The notes beneath the pieces were generated by a model. It did no database searches and was not told the DNA's origin. It worked only from the letters and a program-made list of their open reading frames with translations. Below, piece by piece: positions 1 through 52,870 of a stretch of 64,000 nucleotides of DNA. Position 1 is the stretch's first letter. Each line of letters starts with the position of its first letter. The DNA comes from Psammoneis japonica (Eukaryota): NCBI GenBank assembly GCA_008632985.1, contig QPGO01000013.1:186001-250000 (forward strand), in the 5' to 3' direction. The position numbers and the translations under genes were made by a program.

Positions 1-1799
1 CAGGGAAAGCAAATTGACCTGATTTTAAACAAGCAGATCTGTTTCTGCTTGGCACCACAGTGCGCCATCTTTCCACTGCGTGGGCATCTTGGGCACGGCA
101 ATTGTGCCAAGCTGCGCAGATGCACTCACACAAAGTGTCAAACTGGCAAGCCAATTTTGCCAAAAGGGAATCCTGCAAAGCTTCCTGTGCCACTCATTGC
201 ACTTGCCCTGGCTGCTGTGGTGGCTGTGGTTTGCCTGGAAGTTCTCAACAAACTTCAAACTCATGATGCAAAACAGGCACCTGTGCTTGCACATTTTTGC
301 AAACCAGATGATTCACTCCAAAGAGCAAGAACAAAACGCAAAACAGAAGGAAGAGTCATCATTGTGGCGTGCAGCAGGATCTGAATGGGTTCAATGTGCC
401 AGGGGGTTCTCACACCCTTTTGGTTTTTTTGTGCTGTCACACTCAGCTGTGTCCCCACCCATCTTTTCTGGGACTTGTGTTGGAGTTCCAAGGCTTGCCA
501 ACAGATGCACAGCAGTTGGCATTGCTGACCCCAACACAACCTTGCCACACCCTCCTTCAGCAGACCTTCAACAGCTTCTTTGACAGCAAGGCACCCTCCA
601 GAGATTGTTTCTTCACCCTCATCCAGCCAGCTCATTTGCTGCAATCTGCCAAGGAACACCACAAGGCACACCTTTGGGTTCCTGTTGACCTCCTGGTCTG
701 TTTCTTTTGACTCCTGTGTTGACTTCCCAGCCCTCACATCTGTGGATTCCCTTGACTTTCCAGCCCCCGTTCTGTGGATTCATCTTGACTTCTCAGCCCT
801 CAAATGACTCTGCTCTTTTGAGCATTGTGCCACAATGACCAGCACACATTCTGTCTCACCATCTCCCAACTCACTGAATGGCTTGCAAACACATTGGCTT
901 GTGTTGCTGGCTGTTGTCACCATGTCAACCAGGCACAGAAGATGGGAAGCATGCACAAAACCCGCGGCTCAACCCAAGGTTGCACAGCACCGCTGCTCCC
1001 CACAACTGCCCTTTCATTTGGTTGTCACTTGCAAAATTGTGCCTCAAGTGTTCCTTTTGCATGTTTCCAGGCTGGCCATTGTTGGTTTTCCATGGACACA
1101 CTGCCGCCATGCCCTCTCCATTTGTGCCTTGTCAAATGGCATGCTGGAGCACAGATCTTGGCACTGGGGTGCCACAAACAAATTTGCGCTGCCTCCCTTG
1201 GCTTCTTTTTCAAGCAAGGAAACTGGCTCCTGGACTTTTTAGTTTGTGCCTGTTCAACTGTGGCCTCATTTGCACACCAGGGCAAATTTCCAGAAACTCT
1301 CACGAAAACTGCTCTTCAGCAAAAGCACCTGGCACCTCAGATGCATCTCACCTGAAACCCCCAGAACAGCTCCAATGTCTGTCTCTTCTCTTTGTGTCTC
1401 TGAAGGAGACAGGGGTGCTCTGAGGAAACATTCTGGCAATGCTGGCATGCTGGAGGTGATGCCATGGTGGAGGCAGTTTGTGCAGGAAATTTGCCAAAAA
1501 ACTCCACACTTTCAAGAGGTGCTGTGGTGGAGCCAAACGTCACTCAATGACACAAAGTGCAAAATTGTGTGTTTTCAGGTGTGAAGATTTTGTCATGAGG
1601 TCATTTGGGGCTCATGGAGCTGCAACCAAAATGTTTTGTCTTTTTTCAAAATTCTTTTCAGGTGATGCTTGGCACGACTTGAAGACTGGTGCCACCAATT
1701 TTTTGTCAACTCAAACTTCTTTCCTCCCAACAACAACTGGCACTTCTCCATGGGCTCTGGTCACAGCTCATCAAAAGAAGCAAGAAGACTGCTCAACTG

Positions 1800-3944
1800 C
1801 AAGCAGAGAGAATGAAAGCAGGGCTCAGCTTGTCCCTGATGATGATGCCAGGGAGGAACTGGGTGCCACCGCTGTTGTTTTGAGGAGGGAATTCCTTCTG
1901 CAGACTCAGGCAAGAGCACCAGCATCCACAACCACCTCTTGGCTGTTTTGCAAAAGTGTGACATTGATGAAAATGAAAAGCTTGACAAGATGGAACAGGC
2001 CATGTGTAACATGGACAATGGGAACATGGGCTTTTTGAGTGACAAAAAGGTGTGCAAAAGCTCATGCATGAGAAGATGCAAACCCAAAAGGATCTGTGAC
2101 TTGTTGTGTGCATCTGACAAGAGGTTGCATGGAAACACAACAAGCCATTGTTCTTTTGCCACCATGTGATCAGCTCACTCCCACATGACTCACATTTTCT
2201 GTTGTTTCCTTTTTTGACAGCCTGAGTGCCAAGGATCTTGTCCTCTCTTTTTTGGGCTTTGCTCTTCTTCTTGCTGTTGCCGCCATTGTGGCATCCTTTG
2301 CCACCACCAACTTGGCTCAAGAAACTGCAACAAGCAACAATGTCCTTGTCATCAAAGGCACAGATGAGGTTGCAGATGACAGTCATCAAGGCCAACTCTG
2401 TCATGTCATCACTGTGGGGGATTCTTCAAGATGCCAGCTTGCCAACTGTGTGGCGGCAACTGCAGCTCCAGAGGACAGCCTGGGCTGCATGAAACAGCAG
2501 TGTGATGCCTCCAGGTCCATCAACATCATTTGGACATGGGGTGGACATGACACAGAGGAAGCAATTCTGGTCTGCCCAGGCTGTGGTCATGACAAAAGCA
2601 AGGGCATCAACAACTTCCATTTGCACAATGGAAGGTTGCTGGTGGTGGATTGCTGAGGACCCATTGATTGTGGCTTGGGTGGCACTGCTGGATTTCTGCT
2701 TTTGGCGAATGATTTCTCTGTGCACAAGATGCAGATTGCTTGTTCAACACCTGCTCTGGCACACCAGGAAGATGTGTTTGTCCCTGTCCTCCCACAGACA
2801 CCAGCTTGTGTGGCCACAGTGGTCTTCCAGTTTCTTGCAACTGTGGCAACTCCACATGTGAAGACGTCGTTGACTGCATTGCCAACCTTGCTGCCACAGA
2901 TGCTGACATCATGTGGGAGTGTTTGTTGGAGTGGTTTGTGGCAGGCCCTTTGTTGATGGGGAGGGCACACATCTTCAGGCGACTGTTGTCAACACCAACA
3001 GGGTGCCTGCAAGTTGGTCAACCTCATCCTGCTCTGACAGTCATCAGTTGATCAAGACGATTGCCATCACTCATCGTGATCAAGATGCCTGCCTTCACTC
3101 TCTTGCACAAGAGTGGAAAGCATGTGCACTTGGAGAACATGCCTCAGTTGATTTGTTTGCCACCTTCACCCCAGCTCACATGTCCAACAATGCTCCTCCC
3201 AATCTTGTTTGCGATCCCAAAATCACCAGACTGGACAAAGTCTGGCATGATGCAGAAATCTCTTTTTTGCGGTTGCTTCCTCCTTGATGGGACAAAGTGC
3301 AGAGCCAGGACTGTTGCCTCCCTTTGTTCCTGAGTTTGACAATGACCTGATGGCCATGACAATTGCTGCCACTCATGAAGGATGCATCAATGAAGTGCTC
3401 TTGGCCTTGGAGGTGGCCGCTGATGCAAACAAGTGTGAAGACAGCAAGGACAATTTTGTCTTGAAATTGAATCTCAAGGACAAGACCACTGCCAATGCCC
3501 CAGAAGAAGCAACTCATTTGGCTCTGGTGTGATGCACAATCCATTGGGCATGTCATGTGGATCTGAGTGCATGCTCGGCCATTCAAAATGAGAGGTCCTG
3601 GAACCAAGCAAGCTGAAAGCAGTGCATGAGAGGCACTTTCCTGGTTCTGCCCAGCTGGATTTTGAAAATGAGTGGACCAAGATCTGCAAGGCTTTGTTGC
3701 CCTTGTTGGGAAAGAAGGCTCTGAGAACCATTGAAACAACCAAATTCAAGGCATCAGACTGCAAGACCTGGTTTTGACAGTGGTCAACAAGATCATTGTG
3801 GGCATCATGTGCCCAAACAATGACAATGAACAGCTTCTGAATCTGGCAAATCATGCTGCACTCCACCAGCAGAAAGTTTTGGAGTGTGAAGTGGAGGTTG
3901 TGGCTGAACCTTTCATTGGAGTGCTGTTGTTGGCTCACTTGTAA
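1800..3944 (+). pseudogene. Mutated copy of the EF-hand/ferritin-like gene at 27085-29171
   Basis: Fragments such as LAQETATSNNVLVIKGTDEV, WKACALGEHASVDLFATFT and ATHEGCINEVLLALEVAA match the 27-29 kb gene. It has multiple stops and frameshifts, and most substitutions are CG->TG/CA and TA->TG/CA. Confidence 0.92.
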
Positions 3945-5611
3945 AAGGACAGAACAAGGGCGTGGCAGAATCAATCAAGCCACAACAGACCAGGGGTTTG
4001 CCACATTCCATCACACATGCTTTGGGACAGCACAAGATGCAGTTTAGTTCCCAAGAAAATGACAGTGTCTTTGGGTGGAAGCAGGTCTGTCTAAGCCATC
4101 CAGCCACTCCTCCTTGGTCTTGTGGCTGCCACCAACCTGTCCACACCAGCAGCTGTGGTGGAGCTCTGGTGCTGCAAAACTCTCTGCCTGTGAGGGTGGC
4201 TGGTGGTGCTGTTAACATGCTTCCACCAACATGTGAAAATGGCTGTCAGCACTGAGTCCCCTTGCTCACATTGTTGCACTGATGACCAACTCAGTTGTCC
4301 AGGGCTCAAATGGCAGTCCATGTGGTCCCACATGGCAGCTGCAACTGGCGCTGCCTGTTTCTTTGAGATGGCACAGCAGGCAGGCAACATGGCTCAGAGG
4401 TGTGCAAATCATCTGTTGTTGCCTGATGCTGGCTTTGTCATTCATGGCGCAAACAGCTCTGAGTGTGCAAGTGCACGTGTGCAAACAACAACAGATGACA
4501 TGTGCACCTCAGGCATGGCTCTTTTCTGTGAGCAGTGAACTCAACCTCTTGTGGGTGCACCCAAGGACAAACCCTCACAAGCAATGTTGAAATGTTGGCT
4601 GCACTTGGGGTTGCAAGCTGCAGCATTTTGTCCCTGGTGGCATCCTGCCTCCATGATGAGATCTTCAGTGCAGGCATCAAGGTTGTGACACATGATGCTG
4701 TGATGTGTTGCACACCACTGGGTAGTTGGGGCTCAGCACAAAGTTGTTGTGAGCATGGCACACATGCCATTGAGTGAGTGCTGCAACAAGGCAAGCAGTG
4801 TGGCAGCCACCCCCCTGCATTGCATCAGGAGAATCCTCAAGCACCAATGTGTTGGTCAGAAGCAGGCAGCTCTTCTCTTTTCCATGGGTCTGCTGGCACA
4901 ATGCATTGTTGTGGGCAATCTTCTGGGCAGTTGTGTCCAGCACTGTGAGCTCAAGCAAGAGTGGGTCAATTCCTTGAGCAACATCATTGTGCTTGTTGCC
5001 AGCATGGGTGCAAAACTGTGTGCTCACATTTCCAGCAAAACTGGCACACAGACTCAGAAGCTTGCTCATGCAGCTCACTCAGTGCACTCAATCTGCAGCA
5101 TGTTCTTGATCATGCTCTTTGCTCCCCAAATGTGTGGGTTGGTGTCTTGACCAACTCCAAGGCCCTCTGACAATGCCAGGGCATCCAAGCACCCATTGTG
5201 CCATTTGGTTGTCAGGCCACCCTCAGCTGCCAGCACCATGGGGTGTGGACTTGGTGTGGCTGCAGCGGGGTCACAAATGAATCCAGCGGCAGATCCAACC
5301 CTTCACTTTGTGGCGAATGTGCTGGGGGGAAGTTTCGCAGGCACAGCCCAGGCATGGTGAGCTGCTTGCAGGGGTGGCAGCAGATGCACCCAGGCCAGAA
5401 GCTGCAGTCATGCAGGCTGCCTTTGACAAGCAATTTGACAGCAGGGGTGGACATGCAGTGACTGGGTTGGCAGCGGCAGTGGTGTTGCAAACACGAGTGA
5501 GTGCCTGGCTGTTCTTGGATGCAAACTGTGCCAACAGAAGCAGCTGCAAGTGCAGTCTTCTTGGCTGGCTCCAAGGGACAGGTGCAACATGCAGCTGCCA
5601 ATGAGAGCCAA

Positions 5612-11363: not shown

Positions 11364-11639
11364 TGACAGGATTTGAACAGGATTCAGGTGCGCGCGAAAT
11401 GTCGCGCGCTGTTTAGTTCACCGCGCACAGTTTTGTGTGCTTTAGTTCCGTGCGTTCGCGCGCGATGTAGTTTGCTTTCGAGCCACAAGGCTCACAAGAA
11501 CAATGACAGTGGCCCGATTGTACCGACTCACACGTCTTTCGGCTCCTGCAACGGTCTCTGAGCGGAGACTCATCTGCCATTTAGACAGCAGTGAGGAGTT
11601 GTTGTTTGAATTCTTGCCATTTGCCTTCAATTTCTGTCA
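11364..11639 (+). repeat. Copia LTR (5')
   Basis: TGACAG...CTGTCA termini; near-identical to 14565-14840, 15425-15700 and the reverse complement of 63191-63466. Confidence 0.95.
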
Positions 11640-15700: not shown

Positions 15701-17706
15701 GCGATGCTTTTCAGCACAGAGCTTTGGAGGCATTGGAGTGTGCTTTGGGTGACTTGACTGGCACAACTCTGTCAAAATGCTTTTTCAGGTCTTCTCCTTT
15801 AAACTGAAGCAAGTCCTGTCATTCATCCCAGAAGCCCTTCCTCTCTTTTGACTGCTGGCAGGTGCTGCAACAAAAGATGTGCCACCTTTGTCAGTGTGAG
15901 GCAACTTGTTGCACTCCATCAGCAGTTTTCTTGGTGTGCTTGAGTGGGGTGAGCTCTTTTTCCACTTTCAGCACTCATCACATCTGATGGAGCCACAGAA
16001 GCCAAAATGGCTGCAGTGGCTGTGATGAGGAGTCTTGCAGCATGTGCTTCCAGAAGGGCGTGGTGCAAATCACTGGACCACAAGGACACATTGCCACATG
16101 AGCCCAAAATGCAATGGAGCAAATCAAATGCATGGAAACAGCTCACAGAAAAGTCATTCCAACTGCTTTGGTTGAGATCCAAGTCAAGCCATCATGCACA
16201 ATTGACGTGACATTGTTCCAGCATGCCAAACAATGAGGATGAGATGTGAGGCAGACTGGTCATGCCCAGCTGCAAGGGTGCACAAAGAAACAATTTAAGT
16301 GCAACACAGTGGACCACAGCTGTTGCGCAGAAGTCATTCCAGGTGATTTTGTTGAGCTCTGTGCAGAGCTGTTGTGAACAATCATCTCAGCACATTTCAA
16401 CAAGAACAAGGTGCAAGATTGACACTAGATTGATCATGCTCAACTTTCAACTGCAAGTGCGTGCACAAACAAATGATTCAAGCACATGACAACAGCCCAC
16501 AATTGTCAAGCAGAAACCACCCCAGGTGATTTTGTTGAGTCCAAAGTCAAGCTGTCATGCGCCGTCAATGTGAGGTTCCTGCTTCCTGCTCCTGTGCCAC
16601 TGTGCAGTCACAAGGACACTCCCTCAATCCACAACTCAGCCCACATCACTCATGAAGCATCAGCGCTGTGAACAACAGAGTGGCAACACCTTGCTCTAGA
16701 ACATGAGAGATGAAACAAACAACTGCAAGAAACACAAGGATAGACACCACCGCCACAGACCATCAAAAACATGGTGACACTGCACCACAAAAAGCACAAA
16801 CACAAAACTCAACACACTGAATTTTCTCTCACCACAACAACAAAACACACGCACATCAGCCATCATGGGATGGGGATTGTGGGCAGCACCATGGAGCCAA
16901 TTGTCTTTAAAATGAGTGTCACAGAGATGAGCACCATTTTCACCATTGATGGTGTTTGGGCTGTGCTCTTGTGATTGGAAATGCACCAGAAGCCGTGCAG
17001 CATGGTGCAACTGTGATTGATTTTGGGTGGATGAGCTGCCAGCAAAATCTCCAGAAAATGAAAATGAGGTGACATGCATCTGCGGGGTGTGAGACCCCTC
17101 ATGGCTCTTTGAAGCAATGTTTTTTTCAGTGGAAGAATGCATCCATTGATTGCTGGGAAGACACAGCAAGTCAACAAAAAGAACAACAGCAGTGTGGCGC
17201 CAGCACGGGTGTGTTGTTTTTGTGTTTTTTCATGCATGTGATCTTGCTGTGTGAGGCACCATCACATCTGCAGCATCATTTGTTTGAGTTGGGAGTGTTG
17301 CAGATGTGGGTGCAAATTTTTGATGCACAGTGCATGCCAGAGTGCAAGAAAGGTGGCCCAGCCATCTTGTGGCATGACTGGGTTTGTGGTGAGCTTGCCA
17401 ACCTTTTGACAAAAAATCCACCAAGCCCTCTTTGGTGGCTTGCAATGAACCCTTGATTGACCCTGGCAATGACTCAAGGAGCCCAAAAGATGACAATGGC
17501 AAAAAGAGCAACAAACAAGCCACAGTTGCCAAGAACCTCAGGAAGTTGACAGATGGCAACACAGGCAACACATCCCAGTGCATGGTTGGTGGGAAAGGTC
17601 TGCAGATGCCACAATTCAAATTGGCAACAGTGGATGACATGTGTGCCAGCAAGAAAGAGTGGGAGAAGCTCATCTGTCTGGGTCTATCCATCATCTGCAG
17701 AGCAGG
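15701..17706. other. Hypermutated degenerate sequence of unrecognised origin
   Basis: TA and CG depleted; no confidently recognisable protein. Confidence 0.6.
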
Positions 17707-18085
17707 TGCACTATGCTCGAAGAACGAGTGTAAACGAAAGTAGAATGAAGTTCAAAAGGTGAAAATTATGAGAATTGTTTCCACGCAATCATTTTGGGTT
17801 TCTCCGAACGGGTTCTCAACAGCCTAAACCTTTTGTGCTGCTCCTACAGACAAAAGGCCTTTCGGAGAATATGATCGTGACAACAGATTGTCCGGATACG
17901 ATTGACATTGACACATAAGATGTCAACATCATCGTACGATCGCATTTGCGATTCTCGACATCCGATCACTTCTGTGTGATTGATCTGTACTTCGTACGAA
18001 CCCACGATTGACGTACGATTGAAATATACTTTTATTTAATATATAGATATACATATATAGTACGTACATGACAACGCATATTGCA
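17707..18085 (-). repeat. Gypsy 3' LTR
   Basis: Direct repeat of 22488-22866. Confidence 0.95.
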
Positions 18086-18099
18086 TTCGCCTCCCTAAT

Positions 18100-21000
18100 T
18101 GCACATTAGAGTCAGTCGTTAAACGGTATTATTCGACGAATATTGACAGTGTCAATAACGTTACCGCGTTTGATCTGTACTGTGCCATTAGTATGTACCG
18201 TTGTTATTACATACGGTCCAACATAGGGCTGTTCTAATTTTGCGAGTCTTTCTCGAGTAGTATCTTTTCTCCTACTCTGTACGTGTAAGGAGTACGTCGA
18301 GCATTCTCTCGAGCGTTATTTTTATTTATGATTTCTTGTTTTCGCTGCTGGATTAATTTCCAGTCCGCGACATGTGGACGTTAAATATCATGTCTCTATT
18401 GAAGACTAGTTGTCCTGGTGTAGCTTGCGTAGTGGTATGATACGTAGAACGTACCGCAAATGCTACTGCTGATAGCATTCCAGCGAAAGGATCCTCAGCA
18501 TCTAGAGGTGTATGTTGCAAATCAAATGTACGGAGCATGTTCCCCAGCACTTGATGTACGCGTTCAATAATTGCGTTTGCTTGTGGATTTCGTGTAGTTA
18601 TAGGCTTGACTTTAATGCCATAATCATCTTGCACCATTTCTCTAAATTGGTGTCCGATGAACTCACTTCCACGGTCACATGCAGTTGACGATGGCCAAGG
18701 ATGTCTGCTTGGCCATGTTCGTTCTAATTGTGGACTCCTCATTTGGGATTTCCACAACTTCAAACCATCCGGTTGCTGGATCGATCACAGTTAAACATTT
18801 CAGGACTGAGGGTTTTTTCTTTCCCTTGCGACGCATTTTGTGTGGCCCAATGAGGTCCACACACAGTCGTTCCCATGGTGCGGATTCTGCACACTTGGGA
18901 GGTAAATGTCCACATTTCTTGTGTTTCTTTTTGAATTTTTGGCACGTCTCACATCTCGACACGTATTTTCGTATGTCTTCATGTGAGGTGGACCACCACA
19001 GGTGTTGTGAGATTGTTTCTTCTGTTCGATTTGTGCCAGGGTGAAGAAGGCATGTGTGGTGCCAATCTGTCACTGCCTTTTGTAACGTCCTCGGGACGAC
19101 AATTTTGTCCTTGTGACATGTGAGCAACCGGTCTCGCTCGCCTCCACGAAAAGTCTTCATGTGAAACGTCTCATTTGACAATTGGGAGAGAATGTCTTTG
19201 TCCCGTTTTTGTTCATGATCAAGAACTTTGTAATTTAACGGAAAGACATTGTCGCAGGATTTTGGTGGGACCTTTTCAGCTGGCTCTTCTGTGCTGAGGG
19301 TTTCCATGGGTTCTATTTTCTTCATGGCAAGTCGGCCAATCGCGTCTGCGACAACATTTGCCTTGCCCTCAAGGCACATCATTTCGGGACTGCACTCTTC
19401 TGTTGTTAGACGCCAACGCATGACTCTGTCCGTTGTGAAATTTTTGTGTGTGAGATTTTTGTGATCCGTGCACATGTTCATCTGTTGGCCAAACAGCATG
19501 TTTCGGAACTCTTTTAACGTCTCCACCATGGACAATGGCTCTTTTTCCATTGCAGTGTAACGCGTCTGCGCTCCATTCAGCTTGTGGCTGTAGAAGGCAA
19601 TTGGTCGGTTTTTCTGAGTAACAACCGCCCCCAATTGAGATTTACTGGCATCGGCACATGTCTCAAAGGGTGTGTTAAAATTCGGGTGTGACAACAGCAC
19701 ATCTTTGGAGATGATGCGCTTCACATTTTCGAAGGCTTTTTGTTCTGTTTCGGTCCATTGCCACTTTGCTTGGGTAGAAGTGAGTTTGGCCAAGGGAGCT
19801 AAAACATGAGATCGTCGAGGCCACATGTCTCGACAGCAGTTGATCACACCGATGAAGCGTCGCAATTCCTTGCGAGTTTTAGGAGTTGCGATCGCGTGAA
19901 TCGCTTCTACTTTTTTTGGAATCGGACTGATGCCCTTGCGGGTGACATGAAAGCCCAGATGGTCTACTTCGGGTTTAGCGAAAAAGGACTTCTCGGCATT
20001 GACCTTCAATCCGGCTTGTTCTAGGCGCAAGAACACCGTTTCAAGCTTCTTGAGGTGGTCTTGAAAATCACCTTTTGTGAGACACAACACATCGTCAACA
20101 CAAGTTCTGACGAACTCCAGACCTGCCATGAGCTCACTCATGTGCTCTTGGAAAATATCTGGAGCTCCACAGATTCCCATCGGGAGTCTACAGCACTCAC
20201 ATTTGCCCCAAGGCATGACAATCGTGCACAAGCGACGTGCGTGCGGCGTCAATTCGACATGATGGTGTCCCATGTTTAAATCTAGGGACGTTGCGTGCAT
20301 GAAGCCTTCAAGCTTCTGCAGCACATCCTGAATGTTGGGCAGAGGAAACGGAGTGCGAATTAACCTCTCATTTGGCTCTCGAAAGTCGGGTGAGAACCGA
20401 ACTCCACCATTTTTCTTGGGTTGAACAAAGGTTGGAGCCGCCCATTCAGAACAATTTATTTTTCTTAAGACTTTCAACTTGCACAGTCTTTCAACCTCCT
20501 TACGAGCAGTCGCCTCCAAGGCTTGTGGTGCGGGAAATGGTTTGGCATGATGCGGACTCATGCCCGATTTCAACTTTAAATCCACCGGTTTCCCGGTCCA
20601 TTTGCCCAGAGAACCATCGAAAAGGTTTTCAAATCTTTTTAAGAGGAAGTTCAGCTGCTTCTGCTCTTCAGGAGTTAGATGAGCAGCTGCTGCAGTCACA
20701 TTGTTGAGGTTTGCAGCGTGATGGTCTGAGTCAAGGATCCGATTGACCCTGTCATTAAGACCAATCACTGCATGAGATTCCTCAATGTGATCGGCAATCA
20801 ACTTAAAAACATCGGCATCGAAGAGTGTGTCAACATTCTTCATGGGAGCAGTTGCATCTTCCCATTTAATTTCTTCATTCGAGAAGTCCAACATTGTCCC
20901 AAGACTTGACATTAAGTCGCGTCCCATGATCACATCATAACGACTCGAAGAAGAAGGGGAGTCATCAACATGTGCCGTTGTTTCAATCATCTTATGTTCA

Positions 21001-21296
21001 TCAAATTCGGGCAAGGAGAATTGGATCTTACATCGACTGTCAGTCGTGAAGAGCCCTCCTTTGGTTTCCCAGAGTTTGGTGGCGGATGCTTTTGTTCTGA
21101 GTTTCCGCGTGAATTTGCGCAAAATTATGGTTGATGATGTTCCGCCATCGAGGAGAACGCGCAGAGGCTTATTTTTCGCCTTGCCCAATGAAGTGTTCAC
21201 ATGGGCGACGACTGCTGGACTAGCATGAATTACTTTGGCCCTTTTTCTGGGCTTCCTAACATCCAGCAGAGCATGAGACTCCTCTTGCGGTGCAAG
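18100..21296 (-). pseudogene. pol: Gypsy pol (protease, RT, RNase H, integrase), Tyr-depleted and frameshifted in the integrase
   Basis: LLDGGTSSTI (protease), LPMG and RTCVDD (YxDD mutated), ETCADAS and CTDHKNL (RNase H), CVDLIGP, DRGSEF and NPQANAIIERVH (integrase). Frameshifts near 18730 and 18375. Confidence 0.93.
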
Positions 21297-22451
21297 TCAT
21301 TCCTCGGAATCACTGCGCGTCATTTTTTCAAACTGACAATTTTCCTCGTCAAGGGTGTCAGAATCACAATCTTTGCTCTTGTGTTTTTTATCATTGTTCG
21401 AAGAACTCGCTTTGAGTAATTTTTGAACTGCTTGGATCGCCACAGCATTCAACTCTTCTTTGCGAGCGGCGTCATCGTTGTCGCGACGAGACCACGTGCG
21501 ATTGCCATTTGAACGGCGCCGTTTCGGGTCGGGTTCATGGTTCCCACGGCGTTCTTTCGCAAGTCTTTTGATCGACCAGCACTTGTCCGTGTTATGAGTG
21601 GATTTCTCGCATGAAATGCACCACTTCTTGGACTGAGATTTTTCGGCACCATGTTGGTGACCATTTTTGGAACCACGTTGGGAACCACTCTTGGCTTTTG
21701 ATGCAGTGCCGCCACTGCCATCAGCCTTGGCATGAATGCCATCAAATGTGTCTTCTGCGACCTCTGGGCACTCCAAGAACTCAACCAGCTCGTCACAGGT
21801 ATGTTTCAAAATTTCGAAACCCTGGACGGTCGACTGACGCTGCCACTTTCGAGGTGCAAGGTTGAAGAGGATGTCCTTGAGCTCGTCGTCCTCGATCTTC
21901 TGTTCCTTCCCAAAGGGAGGATAGAACTTGAGGTCTTCGTTGACTTCCTGGACCCAAGCAGCAATTTCGCGTACTTTCATGGACTCCGGCTTCTTGAGAT
22001 CACGGCGCAAATAACGTTTCTGCACCGAAAGTGCGTTCTTGGGAAACACATGCCTCGTGAGATGTTGCAGGCATTTCTCGAAGCTTCCTTCCGCAGATTC
22101 GTCTTCAAGGTTCGCTGCCGCATTCTCGAAAGCACGCAGGGCGTCTCCTTGGAGTAACACACGCATGAGACGAAACTTGTCAGATTGCTTCCTGACATTC
22201 TGGCCCACTGGAAGTTGATCGTAGCTCTTGAGAAATTCGATGAACTTGGGGACACCTTGTTTCTTGTGGCACTCAACATTGATGGTGTAGGTACGGCTAT
22301 CCTTCTTCTCGGGATGAAAACGTTGCTCCATCTTGAGGTGCTGGCTCGGTTTGAGGCTCTTCGGCTCGGAGTTCGATTCCAGCGGTTGAGGGACGATTTT
22401 CTCCTGCCTCAACGAAGTTTTGGCGTTGGTTGCATGAGGTGAAAGCTTCAT
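21297..22451 (-). CDS. gag: Gypsy gag with Cys/His zinc knuckle
   Basis: ORF directly inside the 5' LTR; CISCEKSTHNTDKC knuckle; QKRYLRR..KP..MKVRE gag-like segment. Confidence 0.85.
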   Translation of the reverse strand: MKLSPHATNAKTSLRQEKIVPQPLESNSEPKSLKPSQHLKMEQRFHPEKKDSRTYTINVECHKKQGVPKFIEFLKSYDQLPVGQNVRKQSDKFRLMRVLLQGDALRAFENAAANLEDESAEGSFEKCLQHLTRHVFPKNALSVQKRYLRRDLKKPESMKVREIAAWVQEVNEDLKFYPPFGKEQKIEDDELKDILFNLAPRKWQRQSTVQGFEILKHTCDELVEFLECPEVAEDTFDGIHAKADGSGGTASKAKSGSQRGSKNGHQHGAEKSQSKKWCISCEKSTHNTDKCWSIKRLAKERRGNHEPDPKRRRSNGNRTWSRRDNDDAARKEELNAVAIQAVQKLLKASSSNNDKKHKSKDCDSDTLDEENCQFEKMTRSDSEE

Positions 22452-22487
22452 CTTGAACTTATTACCTTCTGTGGTGTGTATACACAA

Positions 22488-22866
22488 TGCACTATGCTCG
22501 AAGAACGAGTGTAAACGAAAGTAGAATGAAGTTCAAAAGGTGAAAATTATGAGAATCATTTCTGCGCAATCATTTTGGGTTTCTCCGAACGGGTTCTCAA
22601 CAGCCTAAACCTTTTGCACTGCTCCTACAGACAAAAGGCCTTTCGGAGAATATGATCGTGACAACAGATTGTCCGGATACGATTGATATTGACACATAAG
22701 ATGTCAACATCATCGTACGATCGCATTTGCGATTCTCGACATCCGATCACTTCTGTGTGATTGATCTGTACTTCGTACGAACCCACGATTGACGTACGAT
22801 TGAAACACACTTTTATTTAACACATAGATGTGCACATATAGTACGTACATGACAACGCATGTTGCA
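22488..22866 (-). repeat. Gypsy 5' LTR
   Basis: Direct repeat of 17707-18085. Confidence 0.95.
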
Positions 22867-22870
22867 CAGG

Positions 22871-25800
22871 CATGCTGACATCTTCTGGAGCCACTTTGTT
22901 TCATCTCACCCCCCATTGAGTGCACAACCTTGAGTCAACAGGCTTGTCATTGTCACATGGTCATTTTTTAGCCACAACAGTGTGTCTGTGCTCCTGCCAG
23001 CTGTGCACCCACTCCAAAGCTTTTGCTGGTGAAAGTTGGCAACATTCCTGCTTCTGCTGTGCACAAGGACAATCAAGCCTGTCTGAAGCATGTGTGACTT
23101 CCCAAGATTTCTCTGCACACCAAACACATTGTCACCCCTGGTGATCTTTCAAAACTTGCATTGAGCCTGATTTTGGAGAACTGAGTCTCAGCTTGTTGCC
23201 AGTCAATTTGCAAAGGTGCTGAGTCTTGTCAAGCTGAAATTGATCAAAAGAGTCCACTTGGCTGGTGAGCTGGTGACTCACTCACACTTGAGAGGGAGAG
23301 TCATCATCATGACATTGTTGCCATTGTCATTGTGCCAGCATCGTCAACTTTGAAAACCAAGATCATTGCTCCAAAAAAGGTCATGTGTGGAGCATGGTTG
23401 CATGCTCAGCAGGAGTGATGAAACAAAGTGGCTTCAGAAGGGCTGTGATTGGAAAGCAATTGTGCTTCAAATGGCCATTTTCAGATCATCTTGATTTTGA
23501 AAATCAACGGTGCTGACCATGCAACAATGACGACAATGATGATGATGACATCTTGGCAATCAGGGATGTGCTCTTTTGCTGCAAACCCCTTCATGCACAG
23601 ATGGAGGCTGTTGGAAAAGACACTCTCCAGAAAAATTCAAAATGCTGGTTGCCAGTTGCCAAAAGCAAGAGAGTGCCCCATGTTGGTGCAGAGACGTGCA
23701 CAACTGGGGGTTGTCTGTGCAAGCATCCTGCACATGAGACCAAGACAGAGCAGAGTGTGATGCTGTGGGAATTGCAGAGCCACAAAAGAAGCCAGAGTGC
23801 CAGCTTGTGTGCCCACATCTACACTTGCTGCTCCAACAACTTTGAGTGCAATGACAAGCTGCAGCAACAATGTGGCAACCCAGCTGCCAATGGTGCCACA
23901 TCTTCATGGAAACCAGGAAACCAGCACAGTCCAGTTTGTTTTCTTTTGTCTCTGCTGGGTCATTCAGAGCACATTGGTCATCCAATGCAATGCCAAGTGC
24001 TGACAACAACAGCAGCAGCAGCCAATGCCATCATGGCAAACACAGTGTGTGCAACTGGGTTCAACACCAAAGAGCACAGTTTGGAAAATTGCCTGGCTTC
24101 ACTTGTTTTGTTGTTGTTTGGACAAGAACAAAGCAAAAAGATGAACAAAAATTCCAGCATGTGAATTGACTGATTTCCTTCCTGCTCTGCTGGTCCAAAC
24201 AAATGAGATGCTGCAAGTCATTGCTGCATGCCCACACCAGTAAATGCCACAGGATGGCCACAACAACACCATGAACAAAGATGGTCAATGTGAAGGACCA
24301 AAGATGTTGACACCTGCGGGTGTCAGAGAGATTCAAAATGGCACCTCAGGAACATGAGTGGGAAGAAATGGTGAAGGTGTCCTGCTGACATTTGTTCTCT
24401 TCTTTCCCCCCCCTGGCTGCTTGCTGTTCAAAAATGATGACTGCTGAAACAAGGTGACAAAAAAGTCCTGTGGCAATCAGCAATGTGCTCAATGCCATGT
24501 GTGGTTCAGTGGGTGATGGGCTTTCATCATGCCTCAACTTTTCTCAAGGACTGCTCAGGGTGTGCTTGCAACCAACAGATCAATCTCTATGTGCTGATGC
24601 TCAAGATTGCAAACACAGGCCAAACCACAAACCCTGACATCCCTTTTTTGCACCCATGGTGAACAAAGTCACATGCAAGCACAAAAAAACATCACTTGCA
24701 ATCTGTCCAAATCAAGGCCTCACTTTTTTCTCTAAAAGAAGAGGGGCAGCTGTCTGCAAAAGCTGCAAAGCACCTTGGGACCCCCCACAATCCAGGGTTC
24801 ATCCTTGCAGTCAAGATGGTTTGCACTCATGAAGTCAAATTTGTGCAAGTGTTCTCAAATGCAATGGCCGCGCTCCCAACTTGTGTGTGGTCATCTTGGG
24901 GGACGTGTCTGGACGGCTGCTGTTGGGACAATCCAGTGCAGGATTTGCACTGGAACAGTCTGTCAATCAGTGTGATTGGGGCATTTGGAAAAACTGTGTG
25001 AATGCTGGACAGATTCTGTGTCTTTTTCATGAGCTTGGGCTTGCTTCTGCTGATGCTTTTCTGCACACATGAAAAACAATGGCAAGAGCAGCCAGTTGCT
25101 GACAGCTTCCTTGGGACTTTTGGTCAGGGGTGGACTGCCTGGTGTGCATGAGGAGTTCATGGGCTGTGTCACAACCTTGGGGCACAATGTGCATGATGAG
25201 TGTTGCAGCAGGGTGGGACTGGGTCATGCAGGTGGGAGAAAAGGCAGGGGTCTGGGAGGTTGGAGATTTGGTGACCATGAGACACAAAACAGAGACTTTT
25301 TGAAGGCGTCATTGTGATGGCGTGGTGGTGTGGTGGGCGAGAAGGCCAAAGCAGGCCATTCATGCATTCTTCCAGGCAGCTGTGCACAGGGCAGCAGAGA
25401 AGACTCCCGAGGGCAAAAGGTTGGCATGGGTGCGTGTGTGTGGTGCAGGCAGCTGGGTGTTGAAACAAAGGACTTGGATGCCCCTGGGGCAGGTGGGGCA
25501 GGGACATGGGGGCAGCTCTGGTTGGCTCCAAAGAGGAGGCAATGGGCAATGCACCCAGGTGCTCCCAAGTGAACATTGGCCAATGGTGCGAGACAGGCAT
25601 CTGCTTGGCTTGCAACAGCTGTGAGAGTTGATCCACGCTGGGTCTCATGACATCTGCTGAACTTCTGCTTGTTGGTGCTCATGTGGTGTGCCTCAGTGAA
25701 AGGGTTGAGATTGGGAGTGGGGGGCAAGCCAGGAGCTGGGAGGGGAGGTTGTTTGGGAATGGCGTTGTCGATGGCTGGGCAGCTGCGACCTGGGCACAGA

Positions 25801-26370
25801 CTTGAGAGGATGGCTTGATGTGGCTGCACCAGCACACCAAATGCACATGACAAGCTCAACAACAGATTGATGGAATGTTCTTGAGTCAGCCCAAAAAATT
25901 TGCAGAGCCATGCCAAACAAAAATGATGGTCAGTGGCACAACAGGAACAACCTGCTGCTGCGTCACTTGAGAGGCTGTTCTTGATGCGCAGGGCACACTC
26001 AGAGAGTTGAAGGAGCTTGACCCAGATTTGGCTTGAAATGGCCAGATGATGATGTTTCAAATTGAAGCACATTGGGGATCACAGGTCAACTCCTTGATGC
26101 ACAAACAGGTGCCAGCTGTGAGAACAGATGTGTTTTGAATCTCGGCGGTGCAGCCGATGACAACCCAAAAATGTGTCGCAAATGATGTCGACAAAATGAC
26201 CTTGACACCTTGACTCTCTTTGCACCTCTGGAGGAGACAGGGGTGCTCTGAGGGAACATTCTGGCAGTGCTGGTGATGACAATGGCGACGCCATGGTGGA
26301 GGCAGTTTGCGCGGGAAAATTTGCGCAAAAAACTCCACACTTGGCGCTGCGGCGGAACCACATGTCACTG
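22871..26370. other. Hypermutated degenerate sequence, origin unrecognised (possibly old TE remnants)
   Basis: TA and CG depleted; Cys/His/Gln-rich spurious ORFs. Confidence 0.6.
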
Positions 26371-26892: not shown

Positions 26893-27084
26893 GAATTCGT
26901 TTAAAAAGGTCATTTGGGGCTTATCTTTTTTTCAAAAATCTTTTCAGTGACTGCTTGGCGCGACTTCAAGATAGACTGGTGCCGATCTTTCGTCAACTTT
27001 GAACTTCTTTCCTCCCGCCAACTGGTCACTTCTTCATGCTTTCGGTGTGCGGCTCATTAAGAGAAGCAAGAAGACTGTTCGACC

Positions 27085-29171
27085 ATGAGCGAAGAGAAGG
27101 AAAACGGGGTTCAGCTTGCTCCCGACGATGATGCCAGGGAGGAACCGGGTGCGACTATTGTCGAGGAGGGAATTCCTCCTGCAGACTCGGGCAAGAGCAC
27201 CAGCATCCGCAACCGCCTCTCGGCTGTTTCGCGAAAGTACGACATTGACGGCGATGGCAAGCTCGACGAGACGGAACAGGCCATGCGTGACATGGATATT
27301 GAGAACAAGGGCTTTTTGAGCAACGAAATGGTGTACAAGCTCATGCGCGAGCAGATGCAAACCCAAAAGGATCTGTGAGTTGTTGTGTGTATCCGATAAG
27401 AGTTGAATGGAAAGGCATCAGTCATATGATCGACTAACTCTTCTGTTGTTTCCTTTTTTGACAGCCTAAACGCTAAGCGTCTCGTCCTCTTTTTTGGAGG
27501 CTTTGCTCTTCTTCTCGCCGTCGCCACCATCGGAACGTCCTTTGCCGCCGCCAAATTGGCTCAAGAAACTACGACGAGCAACAACGTCCTTGTCGTCAAG
27601 GGCACGGACGAGGTTGTAGCGACCGGTCATCAAGGCAAACTCTATCATATCGTCACTATGGAGGATTCTTCGAGACGCCAGCTTGCCAACTTTACGGTGG
27701 TAGCTACGATTCCGGAGGATGACCTAGATCGCATGAAACAGCAGTGCGATGCCTCCGAATCCGTCAACATCATTCGTACATGGGATGGATACGACGCGGA
27801 AGAAGCAATTCCGGTCTGCCCGGGCAATGGTCATGGCAAAAGCCAGGGCGTCTACAAATTCCATTTGTACAATGGAAGGACGCTGGAGGTGGATTGCCGA
27901 GGACCCGGTGATTGCGACGTGGGCGGCACCGGATTTCTGCTTTCGGTAGGTGATTTCTGTACGCAAGACGCAGATTGCTTGTTCAACACCTGCTCGGGCA
28001 CACCAGGAACATGTTTTTGTCCTCGTCCTCCCGCCGATACCAGCTCATGTAGCAGTGGTCTTCTAGCTTCTTGCATCTACGGCAACTCCGCGTGCGACTA
28101 CGACAATAGCTGCATCGCCAACCTTGCCGCGGCGGATGCTGGCATCGCGTGGGACCATTGCGTTGAAGTGATGTTCGGCAGGCCCTTTGTCGACGGGGAG
28201 GGCGCACATCTCCAGGCGACTGTCGTCGACACCAACAGCACATCTACGAGTTGGTCAACCTCGTCCTACTCTGACAGTCATCAGTTGAGCGAGACGCTCG
28301 CCATCACTAATCGTGAACAAGATGCCTGCCGTCACTCTCTCGGACAAGAGTGGACAGGCCGTGCACTCGGAGAACATGCCTCAGTCGCTTCGTTCGCCGC
28401 CTTCACCCTGGCTCTCATGTCCAACAACGCTCCTCCCGATCTCGTTCGCGATTCCTTGATCGCCGGACTAGACGAAGTCCGGCATGCGGAAACCTCCTTT
28501 GCGGTCGCATCCTCCTTGATGGGACAAAGCGTGGAGCCGGGACCGTTGCCTCCCTCGACTCTTGATTTGGTAACGACCTGACGGCCATGGCAATCGCCAC
28601 CGCTCGTGAAGGATGCGTCGATGAAACGCTCTCGGCCTTGGATTTGGCCGCCGAGGCAAACGAGTACGAAGATGGCAAGGACGATTTCGTTTCGGAATTG
28701 AATCTCAAGGACAAGACCACCACCATTGCCCTAGAGGAAGCAACTCATTCGGCTCTGGCATGGCGCACAATCCGTTGGGTATGTCGCGTGGATCCGAGTG
28801 CGTGCTCAGCCGTTCAAAAGGAGGTCCTAGAACCAAGCAAGCTGAAAGCGGCGTACGAGAGGCGCTTTCCAAGTTCTGCCTCACTCAATTTTGAGAACGA
28901 GTGGACCGAGATTTACGAGGCTTTGTTGCCCTTGCTGGAAAACGAGGCCCAGAACCATTGCAACACCAAGATCAAAGGCGTCGAACCGCAAGACCTGGTT
29001 TCGATGGTGGTCAACAAGATCATCACGGGCGTCATGTGCCCGAACAACGACAGCGAGCAGCTTCCGACTCCGGTAAATCATGCTCCAGTCCACCAGCAGA
29101 ACGCTTTGGAGTGTGAAGCGGAGGCTGCGGTTGAACGTTTCGTTGGAGCGTTGGTGTCGGCTCATTCGTAA
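27085..29171 (+). CDS. EF-hand + transmembrane + Cys-rich + ferritin-like domain protein (one frameshift near 28566)
   Basis: YDIDGDGKLDETE EF-hand-like loop; intron 27375-27464 (GTGAGT..ctaac..ACAG); hydrophobic helix; EHASVASF, DEVRHA, EGCVDET and EEATHSALAW di-iron-type ExxH motifs. The frame changes at ~28566. Confidence 0.75.
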
Positions 29172-29329
29172 AAGGACAGAACGTGGGTGTGGCGGCAGAA
29201 TCAATCAAGCCAAAACAGAAAAGGGGTTTGCCGCATTCTATCACACATGTTTTGACAGTGCGAGTTGTAGTTTAGTTCCTTAAAGAAAAATAGTTTCTTT
29301 GGGTGGAAGTAGGTTTGTCTAAAATGTCT

Positions 29330-31480
29330 AGCCACTCCTCCTCAGTCTTGTGGCCGGCACCAACCTGTCCACACAGGCAGCTACGGTGGAGCTCTGGCTC
29401 TGCAAAACTCTCTGCCTGTGGGGGTGACTGCCCATGCTGTCAACACACCCCACCAACATATGAAAATGGATGTCAGCACTGAGTCCCCTTGCTTGCACTG
29501 TTGTGCTGATGACCCACTCAGTTGTCCAGTGCTCCATGGACACCAGGTCATCCTCAGGGTGGCCTGGTCCATGAGTTCCCACATGGTGGCTGCAACTGGC
29601 AACACATGTGTCCTCAAGATGGCGCTGCAGACACCATGTTGTGCCATTGGCATTCACAGGCAGTGTGGCTGCATCCCAGGACAATTTCTCACAGCATTGA
29701 AATGTTGGCCATGATGGGAGTTGCAAACTGCGGCATTTTGTCTCTCGCACTGTCTTGCCTCCATGATGAGGTCTTCAGTGCAGGCATCAAGGTCGGCACA
29801 TGATGCTGTGATGATGTGATGCACACTGCTGGGTGGTTGGTCATTGGAGCTCACAACACAAAGTTGTGAGTGCAACACACGCCACCAAGTGAGTGCCACA
29901 ACAAGTTGAGTGTGGTGGCTGCCCCTGTCCATTGTCAAGAGGAGCATCAAGCACCACTGTGTTGGCCAGCATTGCACAGCTCTTCTCTTCTTCATGGATC
30001 TGCTGGCACAGTGCATCATTGTGGGCAATCTTCTGGGTGGTTTCATCCAGCACTGTGAGCTCAAGCAAGAGTGGGTTGATTCCTTGAGCAATGCCATCAT
30101 GCTTGTCACCAGCGTGTGGGTGTTGCCAGACTGCGCACTTGCATTTCCAGCAAAACTGGTGCACAGACTCAGAAGCCTGCTCCTGTGGCTCAGTGCATTT
30201 CATCTGCAAGAGCATGTTCTTGATCATGCCCAGATGTGTTGGTTGGTGTCTTGACCAATTCCAAGGCCCTTTGACAATGCCAGGACATCAAAGCACCTCC
30301 ATTGTGCCACTTGGCTGTCATGCCATCCTGAACTGCTTTTGCCATGGGAGATGGACTTGGCATGGATCAGCTGCAGTGGGGTCACAAATTGATTCAGTTG
30401 GAGATCCAGCCCCTCACCTTGTGGCAACTGTGCTGGAGGGAAGTGTCAGGGGAAGAGGGAATGGGCACATTGAGCCACTTGCAGGGGCGGTGGCAGATGC
30501 ACCCAGATCTGAGGCTGCAGCCATGCAGGCTGCCCTCTTGACAAGCAACTCCACAGGGGCGGACATGCAGTGAGTTGGTTGGCTGCAGCAACAGTGCTGT
30601 GAACACAGGTGAGCACCTGGTTGTTGGGTGTGAGCAGTGCCAAGCAACAAAAGCAGCTGCAAGCGCTGCCTTTGGCTGCTTGCAGCTGCTGGGGAGTGCA
30701 AGGACAGAGGCAGTGGTTGACCCCATCTTGTTGTTGCCCTGGCTGTGCATCTTGCTGCTGCTGCTGCGCTGCTCTCATGATTTGTGCTGGCCATGCAAGG
30801 CTCTTTCTGTGATTTTTTGCAGAAACCAGCCATGATGACGGCGATGACTGAGGTTGCTGGCGGGGCTCTGCTCACAATGTGCATGAGGCGCACATTTCTT
30901 TTCACACATGCACACACACATGCACAACAGTGTGCCACAGCTGCCACTCTCTCCAGCCTGGCTCTGCTGTGTCATTGTGCCAGAGCATGCTCTTGATTGA
31001 AGAGGTGCACAAAGGCAGGTGTGTGTGGTTGAAACTGCGCACACACATCAGCAGCAGTTTCGCTGGGAGTGCTCATTTTAATCAACTGCAAGGTCACCAG
31101 GGAAGTCTCAGAGGGGGGAGAGAACAAACTCTCTCTTGCTCCTCTAGCATGCTGCTGCTCTGTTTTGCTCACAGAGAGAAGATGATGCCACCACAACGCA
31201 CCAGCACCACGGCAATGATGATGCATTCACAGCTGGAGCTCCCTCTCATTGGGCTCAAACCTGTCAGATGTCAAAGATTGTGAGCTTGGTTTTGCTTCGA
31301 CTGCTTTTCTCCAGCATAAAAATGGAATGGCAGGTGGTCGCTGGCTGCGATCTGACAGCTTCCTCGGGACTGCAGCTCTCTGTCACTTGCATTTTGTCGA
31401 ATGGATCATGATGTCACATGCCAATGTCCCCAGCTAGCAGCGAACAGCCAGAACCGCATGCATCACAGGCAGACCGCAGA
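29330..31480. other. Hypermutated block paralogous to ~4090-6800
   Basis: Collinear similarity; both copies are TA and CG depleted. Confidence 0.85.
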
Positions 31481-46828: not shown

Positions 46829-47163
46829 GAAAGCACTTACGCAGAACGGCACTGGTTGTCAGGACACCAATATACGCACTATCAGCCGTAATCAGTGGCG
46901 TCTTGCCCCAAGCACCCCAAGAGCAACAGCACCAAATGTCCACTAATGCTAGTAGGTTTTGCAACTTATCTTGATCCGCAGTCACATACCTGGAGGTTTG
47001 CTCGTCATCCTCACTTGGTGAAATAGTCTCTCGCACCGCATTTGTTCAAAAGCCAAAAATGCGAAGGACCACCTGTGCCTGACTACCTACATCGTAAGAC
47101 TTTTGTGTAGCACGCAGAATCCAGTGCGCCGGAACCGATTGGCGCTGATCAAGCGAGTAGCCG

Positions 47164-51730: not shown

Positions 51731-52870
51731 CTAGTGGCCAGTGCCATTGCAATTACTGTCTACCTGGCATCCACAGAAAATCATCGTTTGAAGCATGAGA
51801 TCCACCGTCATTTCATCAAGAATCTGCCGAACGAAGCACATGATGGCATCCTGATGTGGACGTGGCAAAACAAGGCCAAAGCCTTTCAAACGCTGGACCA
51901 ATGTTCGGAACATGAGCTCAATGGGGTTTAACTCTGGTGAGCATCTTGGAAGACACACCACCAACACATTCATGGGATTTCCGTCGGGACCCACCGTGTT
52001 CCACAGCAAATCTTGAAGTGTGTCGGCATCCCCGGCCTTGTGGATGGTGCAATTGTCCAAGATTAATGTGTCAAAGCGATTGAACCATCCAGATGCCAAC
52101 AACTGCTCCACAAATGCAACAAACGCCGCGCTCGTCCCATTGTCCTCCCCGACTGTGTGCGTGATGGGAGCTTTTGTTGCATCAACCCCCACGCACGCGA
52201 GAAGATTGCAACTCTTCCAAAAGTCCCCGTCAACCACGACATTGTCACATGTTCCACTGACAGGGTTAACACGGGCCTTCCTTGAGAAAAAATCTCCCCC
52301 TTCAAGATGCTTTTCGTCGGCAAACTTGAATCACAAGGGATTGAGTTGCGACACGAACTGCACGAAGTCACAGCAGTGCGCAATGTTTTCTGGTCTGAAT
52401 TTGTCAAGTGGAACATTGCTGGTTGCTTTGAATTTTCCTTTGAAGGCAAACCTTGAAGCAAACCATTCTGAGATGAATGATGGAGACACAATGGTGCCTG
52501 TGGCTGCGAACAGCTCTCGTACATGGCTCTCGTTCGTTCTTGTTGAATCTACGAAACGAAGCCAAAGAAGAAAGCTTTCCTCCTCTGGTGTCAAACAAAT
52601 GCTTCCAACACCTTGACACCGCTGTTGTCGACTTCTCAATTCATTAGGGTGCATCACCATGCCCTTGATGTCTGCTTCATTCTTGATTTTGTCGGCAAAA
52701 TCCCAGCCAACCTTGCAAGCTCTTGCAAGCGCAGCGGTGTCGGGGACTTCTCCAAGCGTCGTTTTTAGCTCTTCATACACCCTTGCAACCTCTAACTTCT
52801 TTAGGTATGGGCATGACTTTCCGGGAGCATAGATTCCACCATTGGAATTGATTTCAAACCTTTCAGTCAT
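51731..52870 (-). pseudogene. DDE transposase (IS630/Tc1-like) with one in-frame TGA
   Basis: FADEKH, LILDNCTIH and CLPRCSPELNPIELMF; ORFs 52331-52975 and 51731-52237 are in the same frame, separated by TGA at 52331-52333. Confidence 0.9.

Follow-up and report, generated by a model that had tools for sequence, protein, structure and literature searches.

Mutation aimed at the TpA dinucleotides of DNA has been described in the chlorarachniophyte alga Bigelowiella natans (Mettrop et al., bioRxiv 10.64898/2026.01.13.699255, 2026). According to this preprint, 231 of the 302 new point mutations in mutation-accumulation lines lay in two integrated viral regions. The mutation rate in these regions was ~6e-7, compared with 3.5e-10 elsewhere; this rate, ~1000-fold over background, was seen in only some lines. 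The changes were nearly only A>G/T>C, all on TpA. The genome also holds 124 clusters that are poor in TpA and rich in CpA and TpG, and its TpA-poor genes are enriched in reverse transcriptase (RT) and DDE domains. The authors proposed, without proof, an ADAT2-like DNA adenine deaminase. Here we describe a comparable signature in a diatom. Our subject is a dead Ty3/Gypsy long terminal repeat (LTR) retrotransposon in a 64,000-nucleotide stretch of the Psammoneis japonica genome (assembly GCA_008632985.1, contig QPGO01000013.1, positions 186,001-250,000; hereafter the window). We conclude that a DNA-level process, restricted to certain regions and acting after integration on both strands, has very probably rewritten TpA to TpG or CpA in this element.

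Other known systems resemble this signature in part. Repeat-induced point mutation (hereafter RIP) is known from fungi only (PMC2621366), and diatoms methylate their transposons at CG (PMC9998398). The APOBEC3 and ADAR systems of animals also inactivate retroelements by context-specific hypermutation, there based on deaminases. Our literature search found no description of a TpA process beyond the B. natans preprint, and none for diatoms.

The Psammoneis locus shares the main features of B. natans. In both, A>G/T>C changes on TpA give TpG or CpA, depending on the strand, in particular regions of foreign or mobile origin. In both, the long-term trace is TpA depletion with CpA/TpG enrichment, together with RT and DDE sequences. 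The differences lie in host, target and depth. B. natans is a rhizarian, whereas the host here is a stramenopile. The B. natans targets are giant-virus and virophage inserts, while those here are an LTR retrotransposon, a DDE remnant, unclassified repeats and a dead gene duplicate. Depletion is deeper here, with observed/expected (o/e) TA ratios of 0.00-0.08, compared with 0.45 in the B. natans region derived from a nucleocytoplasmic large DNA virus. The oldest blocks here lose CpG as well, whereas the preprint's main text does not mention CpG, nor do the words LTR, retrotransposon or Gypsy occur in it. Finally, the evidence on rate is a ratio here (15/128 TA bases changed vs 0/630 other bases), and a measured de novo rate in B. 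natans.

The element is evidently an inactive Ty3/Gypsy copy. It is a single LTR retrotransposon on the minus strand, with LTRs that open with TG and close with CA, a short target-site duplication (TSD), a polypurine tract, and gag ahead of pol, whose parts run protease-RT-RNase H-integrase. The intact 4-bp TSD indicates one insertion, and the polypurine tract beside the 3' LTR fixes the orientation as minus. The parts are as follows.

17703..17706, no strand assigned: left TSD, CAGG, read from the sequence
17707..18085, minus strand: LTR1, the 3' LTR in element orientation, 379 bp, TG..CA, from the gapless LTR comparison
18086..18096, minus strand: polypurine tract, AGGGAGGCGAA on the minus strand, adjoining the 3' LTR, read from the sequence
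18356..18763, minus strand: integrase core (rve) remnant in a frame other than that of the main pol open reading frame (ORF); weak Pfam match, below cut-off, E 0.003
18675..21200, minus strand: pol ORF with protease region, RVT_1, RNase H and integrase zinc finger, from ORF and Pfam analysis
21297..22487, minus strand: gag-like ORF with a CCHC-like stretch, no Pfam match
22488..22866, minus strand: LTR2, the 5' LTR in element orientation, 379 bp, from the gapless LTR comparison
22867..22870, no strand assigned: right TSD, CAGG, read from the sequence

Pfam matches within pol follow in the order RVT_1, RT_RNaseH(_2) and Integrase_H2C2. The pol copy is dead because the RT YxDD motif has lost its Tyr (codon 367, TGT). 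An earlier note on this DNA had given both the 379-bp LTR length and the matching CAGG TSD, and we find these on both sides of the element. The 64-kb window contains no second copy of the Gypsy element, and Rfam and tRNA scans of the window found no RNA genes.

The two LTRs differ only at sites that read TA, TG or CA. In a gapless alignment, at an offset of 4781, 15 of 379 bases differ. Every one of these is a transition, and together they form 12 dinucleotide sites, each of which is TA, TG or CA in either LTR. At three of them, TG in one LTR stands opposite CA in the other (LTR1/LTR2: TG/CA at 17776-7 and 17836-7, CA/TG at 17782-3). The remaining sites are CA/TA at 17906-7, TA/CA (n=5) and TA/TG (n=3). 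Conserved between the LTRs are 23 CG, 20 TA, 24 CA and 25 TG dinucleotides; all 23 CpGs are thus identical, and no site pairs CG with TG or CA. The earlier note had counted about 12 variable sites, all at TA, with three TG/CA pairs and no variable CpG. The pairwise alignment bears out each of these counts, and the strings quoted as examples (aattgtttccacgc / aatcatttctgcgc; ttttgtgctg / ttttgcactg) are present in the sequence.

This concentration on TA is far from random. If TA is taken as ancestral at the 12 sites, each LTR held 32 TA dinucleotides covering 64 of its 379 bases, and all 15 changes are A>G or T>C. With the 12 sites so assumed, the chance that 15 random changes would all land on TA bases is 2.6e-12. 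Changes affect 15/128 TA bases, compared with 0/630 of all others (Fisher p = 1.3e-12) and 0/92 CpG bases (Fisher p = 2e-4). On the same assumption, LTR1 carries four hit sites (17776-7 TG, 17782-3 CA, 17836-7 TG and 17906-7 CA) and LTR2 carries 11, eight of them inside 22806-22861. TG and CA outcomes stand a few bases apart within each LTR, which means that the target was double-stranded DNA, or both strands in turn. By these counts, the TpA process has evidently run much faster than background and, within the Gypsy element, faster than CpG decay. The naive LTR divergence (K = 0.041) is carried wholly by TA sites, and the upper 95% bound on change at the unaltered non-TA bases is 0.47%. A date based on LTR divergence would be inflated here, as had been claimed before.

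The two LTRs of one insertion are identical at the start, in the standard scheme of reverse transcription. The differences between them therefore arose after integration. It is highly improbable that they stem from editing before integration, either by ADAR-like A-to-I changes on RNA or by RT errors. ADAR-type enzymes do prefer a 5' U, according to the B. natans preprint (bioRxiv 10.64898/2026.01.13.699255). The Tyr-to-His/Cys changes in pol (see below) may also be partly shared by many copies, as only 2 of the 15 differ from a family majority with a share of at least 0.79. However, each LTR is hit on both strands within a few bases, and both LTRs come from one template, so that their mutual differences post-date integration. 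The internal changes are not all sense-strand A>G (9 His, 6 Cys), and the same signature is shared by a paralogue pair, a tandem repeat and a DDE transposon, none of which are retroelements. APOBEC3 and ADAR act on single-stranded cDNA or RNA before integration, are strand-specific and leave the LTRs alike, whereas here both strands are hit, about equally, after integration. The evidence thus favors the earlier view that the mutations arose in DNA, after integration and on both strands, over RNA editing or RT error.

Conserved tyrosines in pol point to TA as the ancestral state. Our outgroup consisted of 16 metagenome relatives, 50-56% identical to pol and aligned with it. At the 20 columns where at least 14 of the 16 relatives have Tyr, this copy has 4 Tyr, 9 His (CAY), 6 Cys (TGY) and 1 Phe. 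Other conserved pol columns are changed at only 34 of 329 positions (p = 1e-11 for the contrast), and conserved Arg columns, where CGN codons hold a CpG, are intact at 18 of 21. By comparison, 79 related metagenome loci keep 65-100% of the conserved Tyr, mostly at least 85%. The lowest values are 8/12 (L051), 15/20 (L015 and L038) and 13/17 (L048), and any one locus has at most 3 His or 1 Cys at these columns. Across the 79 pol loci, the median TA o/e is 0.75 and the lowest is 0.43. Because Tyr is kept in these relatives, its loss is specific to this genome rather than to the Gypsy clade. Together with the paralogue pair and the near-TA-free repeat zones described below, the pol outgroup supports TA as the ancestral state, changing to TG or CA, as the earlier note had proposed.

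The protein collection contained no pol more than 56% identical, the closest being Gypsy-type pols at 50-56%. No relative of the pol protein was found in the viral contig collection, and an exact 29-base LTR word had no match among metagenome contigs. The two closest pol relatives, at 61% identity, are L051 and L046, which lie on sediment metagenome contigs. Both are low in TA (o/e 0.43 and 0.59) and in CG (0.33 and 0.26), and L051 has His at 3/12 conserved Tyr columns. The same process may therefore operate, less strongly, in their hosts.

The signature extends to sequences other than the Gypsy element. The window holds two paralogues that are 79% identical, one decayed and one open, as well as a tandem repeat, a transposase remnant and the two flanks of the insertion.

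1641..4307, plus strand: paralogue A, decayed, with broken frames, TA o/e 0.01-0.02 and CG ~0.1
26927..29534, plus strand: paralogue B, of normal composition, with open frames of 383 and 201 aa
13981..15700, plus strand: tandem pair of 860-bp units (13981-14840 / 14841-15700), of a family unrelated to Gypsy
51734..52330, minus strand: DDE_3 (Tc1/mariner-type) transposase remnant, Pfam E 4e-12
15701..17706: left flank of the insertion, a depleted, CA/TG-rich block with 7 TA vs 137 expected and 14 CG vs 113 expected
22867..26100: right flank of the insertion, a depleted block with 5 TA vs 208 expected and 21 CG vs 195 expected

Paralogue B serves as a reference for the state of A before its decay. 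The dinucleotides of B are found in A as follows.

TA in B (n=54): TG 24, CA 21, TA 3
CG in B (n=185): TG 90, CA 74, CG 8
CA in B (n=183): CA 152
TG in B (n=184): TG 164

Paralogue A has therefore turned 45/54 TA and 164/185 CG into TG or CA. Since paralogue B is unhit, duplication as such is not the trigger. Paralogue B matches nothing in Pfam and includes a hydrophobic stretch; it may represent either a gene specific to the lineage or a mobile element that goes unrecognised.

Repeats in the window show the same bias. The two 860-bp units differ at 31 positions, 30 of which are transitions, comprising 7 CA/TG flips, 13 CG/TG or CG/CA sites and 1 CA/TA site; just 3 TA remain per unit. Across this repeat family, TA o/e is 0.07, half of the CG is gone and CA/TG flips are frequent between copies. 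Further members, likewise unclassified, lie at 11361-11640 and 63187-63516 (inverted). Among the 10 gapless repeat pairs from our self-comparison of the window, transitions at pyrimidine-purine steps predominate and TG/CA flips are common, with no instance of TA in one copy opposite CG in the other. Between the copies of a tandem repeat that lies in an ordinary gene (9222-9779), 18 transitions and 14 transversions make up a normal spectrum. This spectrum in 192-bp repeats indicates that being repeated in tandem is not enough to draw the TpA process. The gene in question (ORF 8581-10068, plus strand) encodes PT repeats, has a weak gametolysin (M11) match, and carries its 192-bp tandem repeats at 9222-9941.

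TpA depletion within the 64-kb window falls in sharp blocks, the TA-poor zones include the Gypsy element, the DDE_3 remnant and repeats, and the genic parts are ordinary. Four blocks are fully depleted (1-5250, 15751-17500, 23001-26250 and 29501-31000), with TA o/e 0.00-0.08, CG o/e 0.04-0.18, CA and TG at 1.7-2.2, and ~50% G+C. Across positions 1-4000 alone, o/e is 0.02 for TA, 1.79 for CA and 1.83 for TG. The flanks of the Gypsy insertion together hold 12 TA, compared with 345 expected. In a 1-kb profile, the genic parts have TA o/e 0.45-0.85 and CG ~1. The Gypsy element is intermediate: its internal part has TA 0.37 and CG 0.91, and its LTRs have TA 0.64-0.80 and CG 1.45-1.59. The zone of the DDE_3 remnant (50-53 kb) is also TA-poor (o/e 0.11-0.22) with CG still present. 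The TA-poor zones that retain much CG coincide with the Gypsy element, the repeat family at 11-16 kb and the DDE_3 remnant. Among 98 stop-to-stop ORFs of the depleted zones, only the DDE_3 remnant matched Pfam above the curated cut-off, and the four fully depleted blocks yielded no Pfam domain. The loss of TAA and TAG leaves long false ORFs on both strands of the depleted blocks.

These observations bear on the likeness to RIP in Neurospora and other fungi. Like RIP, the process here acts at the DNA level, is transition-only and dinucleotide-specific, disables transposons, skews dinucleotide ratios and spoils LTR dating. However, the C-to-T changes of RIP, which fall chiefly on CpA, give rise to TpA, whereas here TpA is destroyed. 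RIP also hits every copy of a duplication, while here paralogue B is unhit with its frames open. If a fungal-type process ran in the window, with C>T at CpA/TpG creating TA, then TA would be the derived state. At the nine sites that pair TA with CA or TG, the LTR pair alone cannot give the direction. Nevertheless, we consider this reversal exceedingly improbable. TA is depleted, not enriched, in every repeat of the window; conserved Tyr (TAY) codons have become His or Cys and not the reverse; the decayed paralogue has lost its TA; and the intact paralogue B has not been hit.

Other copies of the Gypsy family can be read from X1, a public run that contains the window and whose contigs gave family word depths and variants. 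Two other runs (X2 and X3) represented next to none of the stretch. Word depth in X1 rises from 68.7 on the unique flank to ~8,000 within the element and 40,000-52,000 on the LTR, but is down to 2,634 in the last 77 bp of the LTR. This low depth fits strong variation among copies at the TA-rich end of the LTR. Variable places in the family number 881 for transitions and 123 for transversions. Alleles private to this copy occur at depths of 63-92, i.e., the single-copy level, and are thus carried by X1 contigs. Private TA hits occur at codons 787 (TAC>CAC), 739 (TTA>TCA) and 478 (GTA>GCA). Variant states are listed for 40 of the 1018 variant places, and the changes from family majority to window at these 40 places are as follows.

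TA>TG 7, TA>CA 2
CG>TG 5, CG>CA 3
CA/TG>TA 4, CA/TG>CG 3
TG/CA flips 2 (4 rows)
other transitions 8, transversions 4

One of the flips lies in a pol codon with an outgroup.

20721..20723, minus strand: pol codon 160, CAT (His) here, TGT (Cys) in ~94% of family depth, Tyr in 16/16 relatives

On the outgroup evidence, codon 160 is a CA/TG flip with a demonstrated TA ancestor, the same type of event as that proposed for the LTRs. An ancestral CG fits the other flip, at 20999/21000, better.

That second flip is one reason to ask whether the three TG/CA sites in the LTRs were once CpG, with methylated CpG deaminated on opposite strands in the two LTRs. Change from CpG to TpG or CpA is real in the window, as seen at the 164/185 CG of the paralogues and the 13 CG/TG or CG/CA sites of the 860-bp pair. 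It is very unlikely to explain the LTR sites, though. CG is never paired with TG or CA between the LTRs, where the 23 CpGs are identical, and three double hits without any single hit among 26 CpGs would be very unlikely, whereas the TA sites show nine single hits. The family majority at 22557 is T, not C, and the conserved Arg codons of pol are largely intact. Decay of methylated CpG can account for the CG loss in old blocks and for some CA/TG flips, yet it leaves TpA alone and is not what separates the LTRs.

Three further sources of the pattern were considered and rejected. Long-read basecalling artefacts at modified bases do not fit with a TA o/e of 0.01 over kilobases or with private alleles at single-copy depth. 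Dinucleotide inversion or tandem double substitution does not explain the TG/CA flips, as TA is the intermediate at codon 160. A hotspot common to every pyrimidine-purine step is not compatible with the lack of any TA/CG pair among the 10 repeat pairs.

Several points weigh against a TpA process acting in place on the two LTRs. The LTR differences are clustered, with eight within 56 bp, all on LTR2, and six within 62 bp; such clustering would also fit gene-conversion tracts or a copy-mixing assembly. Three double hits among 32 TA sites compare with 1.4 expected (p = 0.11, with equal site rates and opposite directions not required), which can be accepted if TA sites are not all hit equally readily. 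The LTR also has five TA within GTAC that are unhit, though TA followed by C had looked favored in the paralogue pair; we rejected that context preference (22 vs 9) as weak and not repeated by the LTR. The family evidence also has its limits. X1 is possibly the window's own assembly data and would then not count as independent support. The majority state in the family is sometimes not the ancestral one (codons 606 and 302), and the changes from that majority at the 40 listed places include some toward TA or CG, as given above. The family state can be read at one LTR base only (22557), where T makes up 86% of depth. The consensus comparison that was to decide the ancestral state in the LTRs is thus confined to this base, which fits TA or TG. 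Finally, all of the support consists of sequence patterns.

The clustering could mean that the LTR differences were copied in from mutated family members, either through ectopic gene conversion or because an assembler or polisher mixed the reads of several copies. Word depth suggests ~600 LTR equivalents in the family, and the great depth of the LTR and the strong variation in its last 77 bp are in keeping with this. The differences fall into two short tracts and a singleton (17776-17837, 18025-18080 and 17906), and in the second tract 8/8 are on LTR2. On the other hand, the TSD and both LTR ends are intact, and a conversion tract should bring in non-TA variants, of which there are none among the 630 other bases. 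We regard this explanation as unlikely; gene conversion from mutated copies is, however, not separable from hits in place. Imported variants would themselves stem from the same TpA process. Thus, only the timing of the 15 changes would be affected, and not the existence of the process.

The site specificity, direction, strand symmetry, post-integration timing and regional restriction of the process are all demonstrated by these observations. We infer that the process is enzymatic and aimed at silenced or mobile DNA. In the mechanism that we propose, a host process would act on the integrated Gypsy copy, now dead, and turn A:T into G:C at TpA alone. Hits on one strand would yield TG, and those on the other CA. 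Two LTRs that are hit independently can therefore read TG and CA at the same TA. The same process would act on the other transposons and dead duplicates in the window and would be near completion in old blocks. The enzyme might be a deaminase, TadA/ADAT2-like or of another type, that is directed at silenced or foreign DNA, as has been suggested for B. natans. Enzymatic adenine deamination in DNA at 5'-TA is a serious candidate for the chemistry, to which we give a little under an even chance. CpG is spared in the LTRs and pol, but has been lost in the oldest blocks. There, CpG has likewise gone to TG/CA, most simply by deamination of methylated CpG, and this may be a separate process.

Because TpA is palindromic, sequence does not distinguish A>G from T>C. 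A modified thymine at TpA (5-hydroxymethyl- or 5-formyl-uracil, or base-J-like) that mispairs with G would give T>C without any adenine deamination. Modified thymines occur preferentially at TpA in kinetoplastid telomeres and dinoflagellates; our literature search found no paper on this. A single oxidase that acts on both steps would fit the old blocks, where methylated CpG and TpA have been lost together. In the LTRs and pol, however, TA is hit and CpG is spared, which shows that one loss can occur without the other. A deaminase is also favored, without proof, in the B. natans preprint, the sole experimental study of this signature. On balance, we find a modified thymine quite unlikely and prefer adenine deamination.

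Elsewhere, the window carries ordinary diatom-type genes. A phosphoglycerate kinase (PGK) lies at 37871-38830 (plus strand); the first 75 profile positions fall outside the ORF, probably owing to an intron. The best matches of the PGK ORF are 88-91% identical, and the named ones are all diatoms (Minutocellus, Mayamaea and an MMETSP entry whose name starts with 'Dact'); on these grounds we dismissed the idea of a Bigelowiella host. Other ordinary diatom-type genes are a Fea1-like iron-starvation protein (47164-49425, minus strand) and a HisKA/HATPase histidine kinase (61395-62810, minus strand). MIF4G/MA3 and ubiquilin genes are also present, and the gene set fits an intron-poor alga. In the genic half of the window (32001-64000), TA o/e is only ~0.45-0.7, with CA and TG slightly above 1. 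This shortage would fit either a weak genome-wide pull like that in the blocks or ordinary avoidance of TA in coding sequence.

The Psammoneis locus is a new case of a recently described process rather than a new kind; both the major lineage and the class of target differ from those of the first case. Its end state is more extreme than that of B. natans, with CpG loss added. We tentatively suggest, as an idea that we would sooner bet against than on, that diatoms and chlorarachniophytes share an old enzyme-driven defence that rewrites TpA in silenced mobile or foreign DNA. This would be a counterpart of RIP with the opposite chemistry, working here beside CpG methylation until blocks lack both TA and CG. 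If so, the defence could be widespread in the SAR (Stramenopiles, Alveolata and Rhizaria) supergroup, and could be read from any genome through LTR pairs and counts of Tyr>His/Cys.

TpA-aimed mutation of DNA was first reported in 2026, in one alga and in viral inserts only, and the full signature is now seen in a high-copy retrotransposon of a diatom. In genomes of this kind, LTR-divergence dating is biased, and repeat finders and homology searches miss old elements. If an enzyme is responsible, or if the defence is shared, this would point to a natural editor of adenine in double-stranded DNA, of interest for base editing. The diatom case suggests that the process may be old and widespread among major marine phytoplankton, or that it may have arisen more than once.

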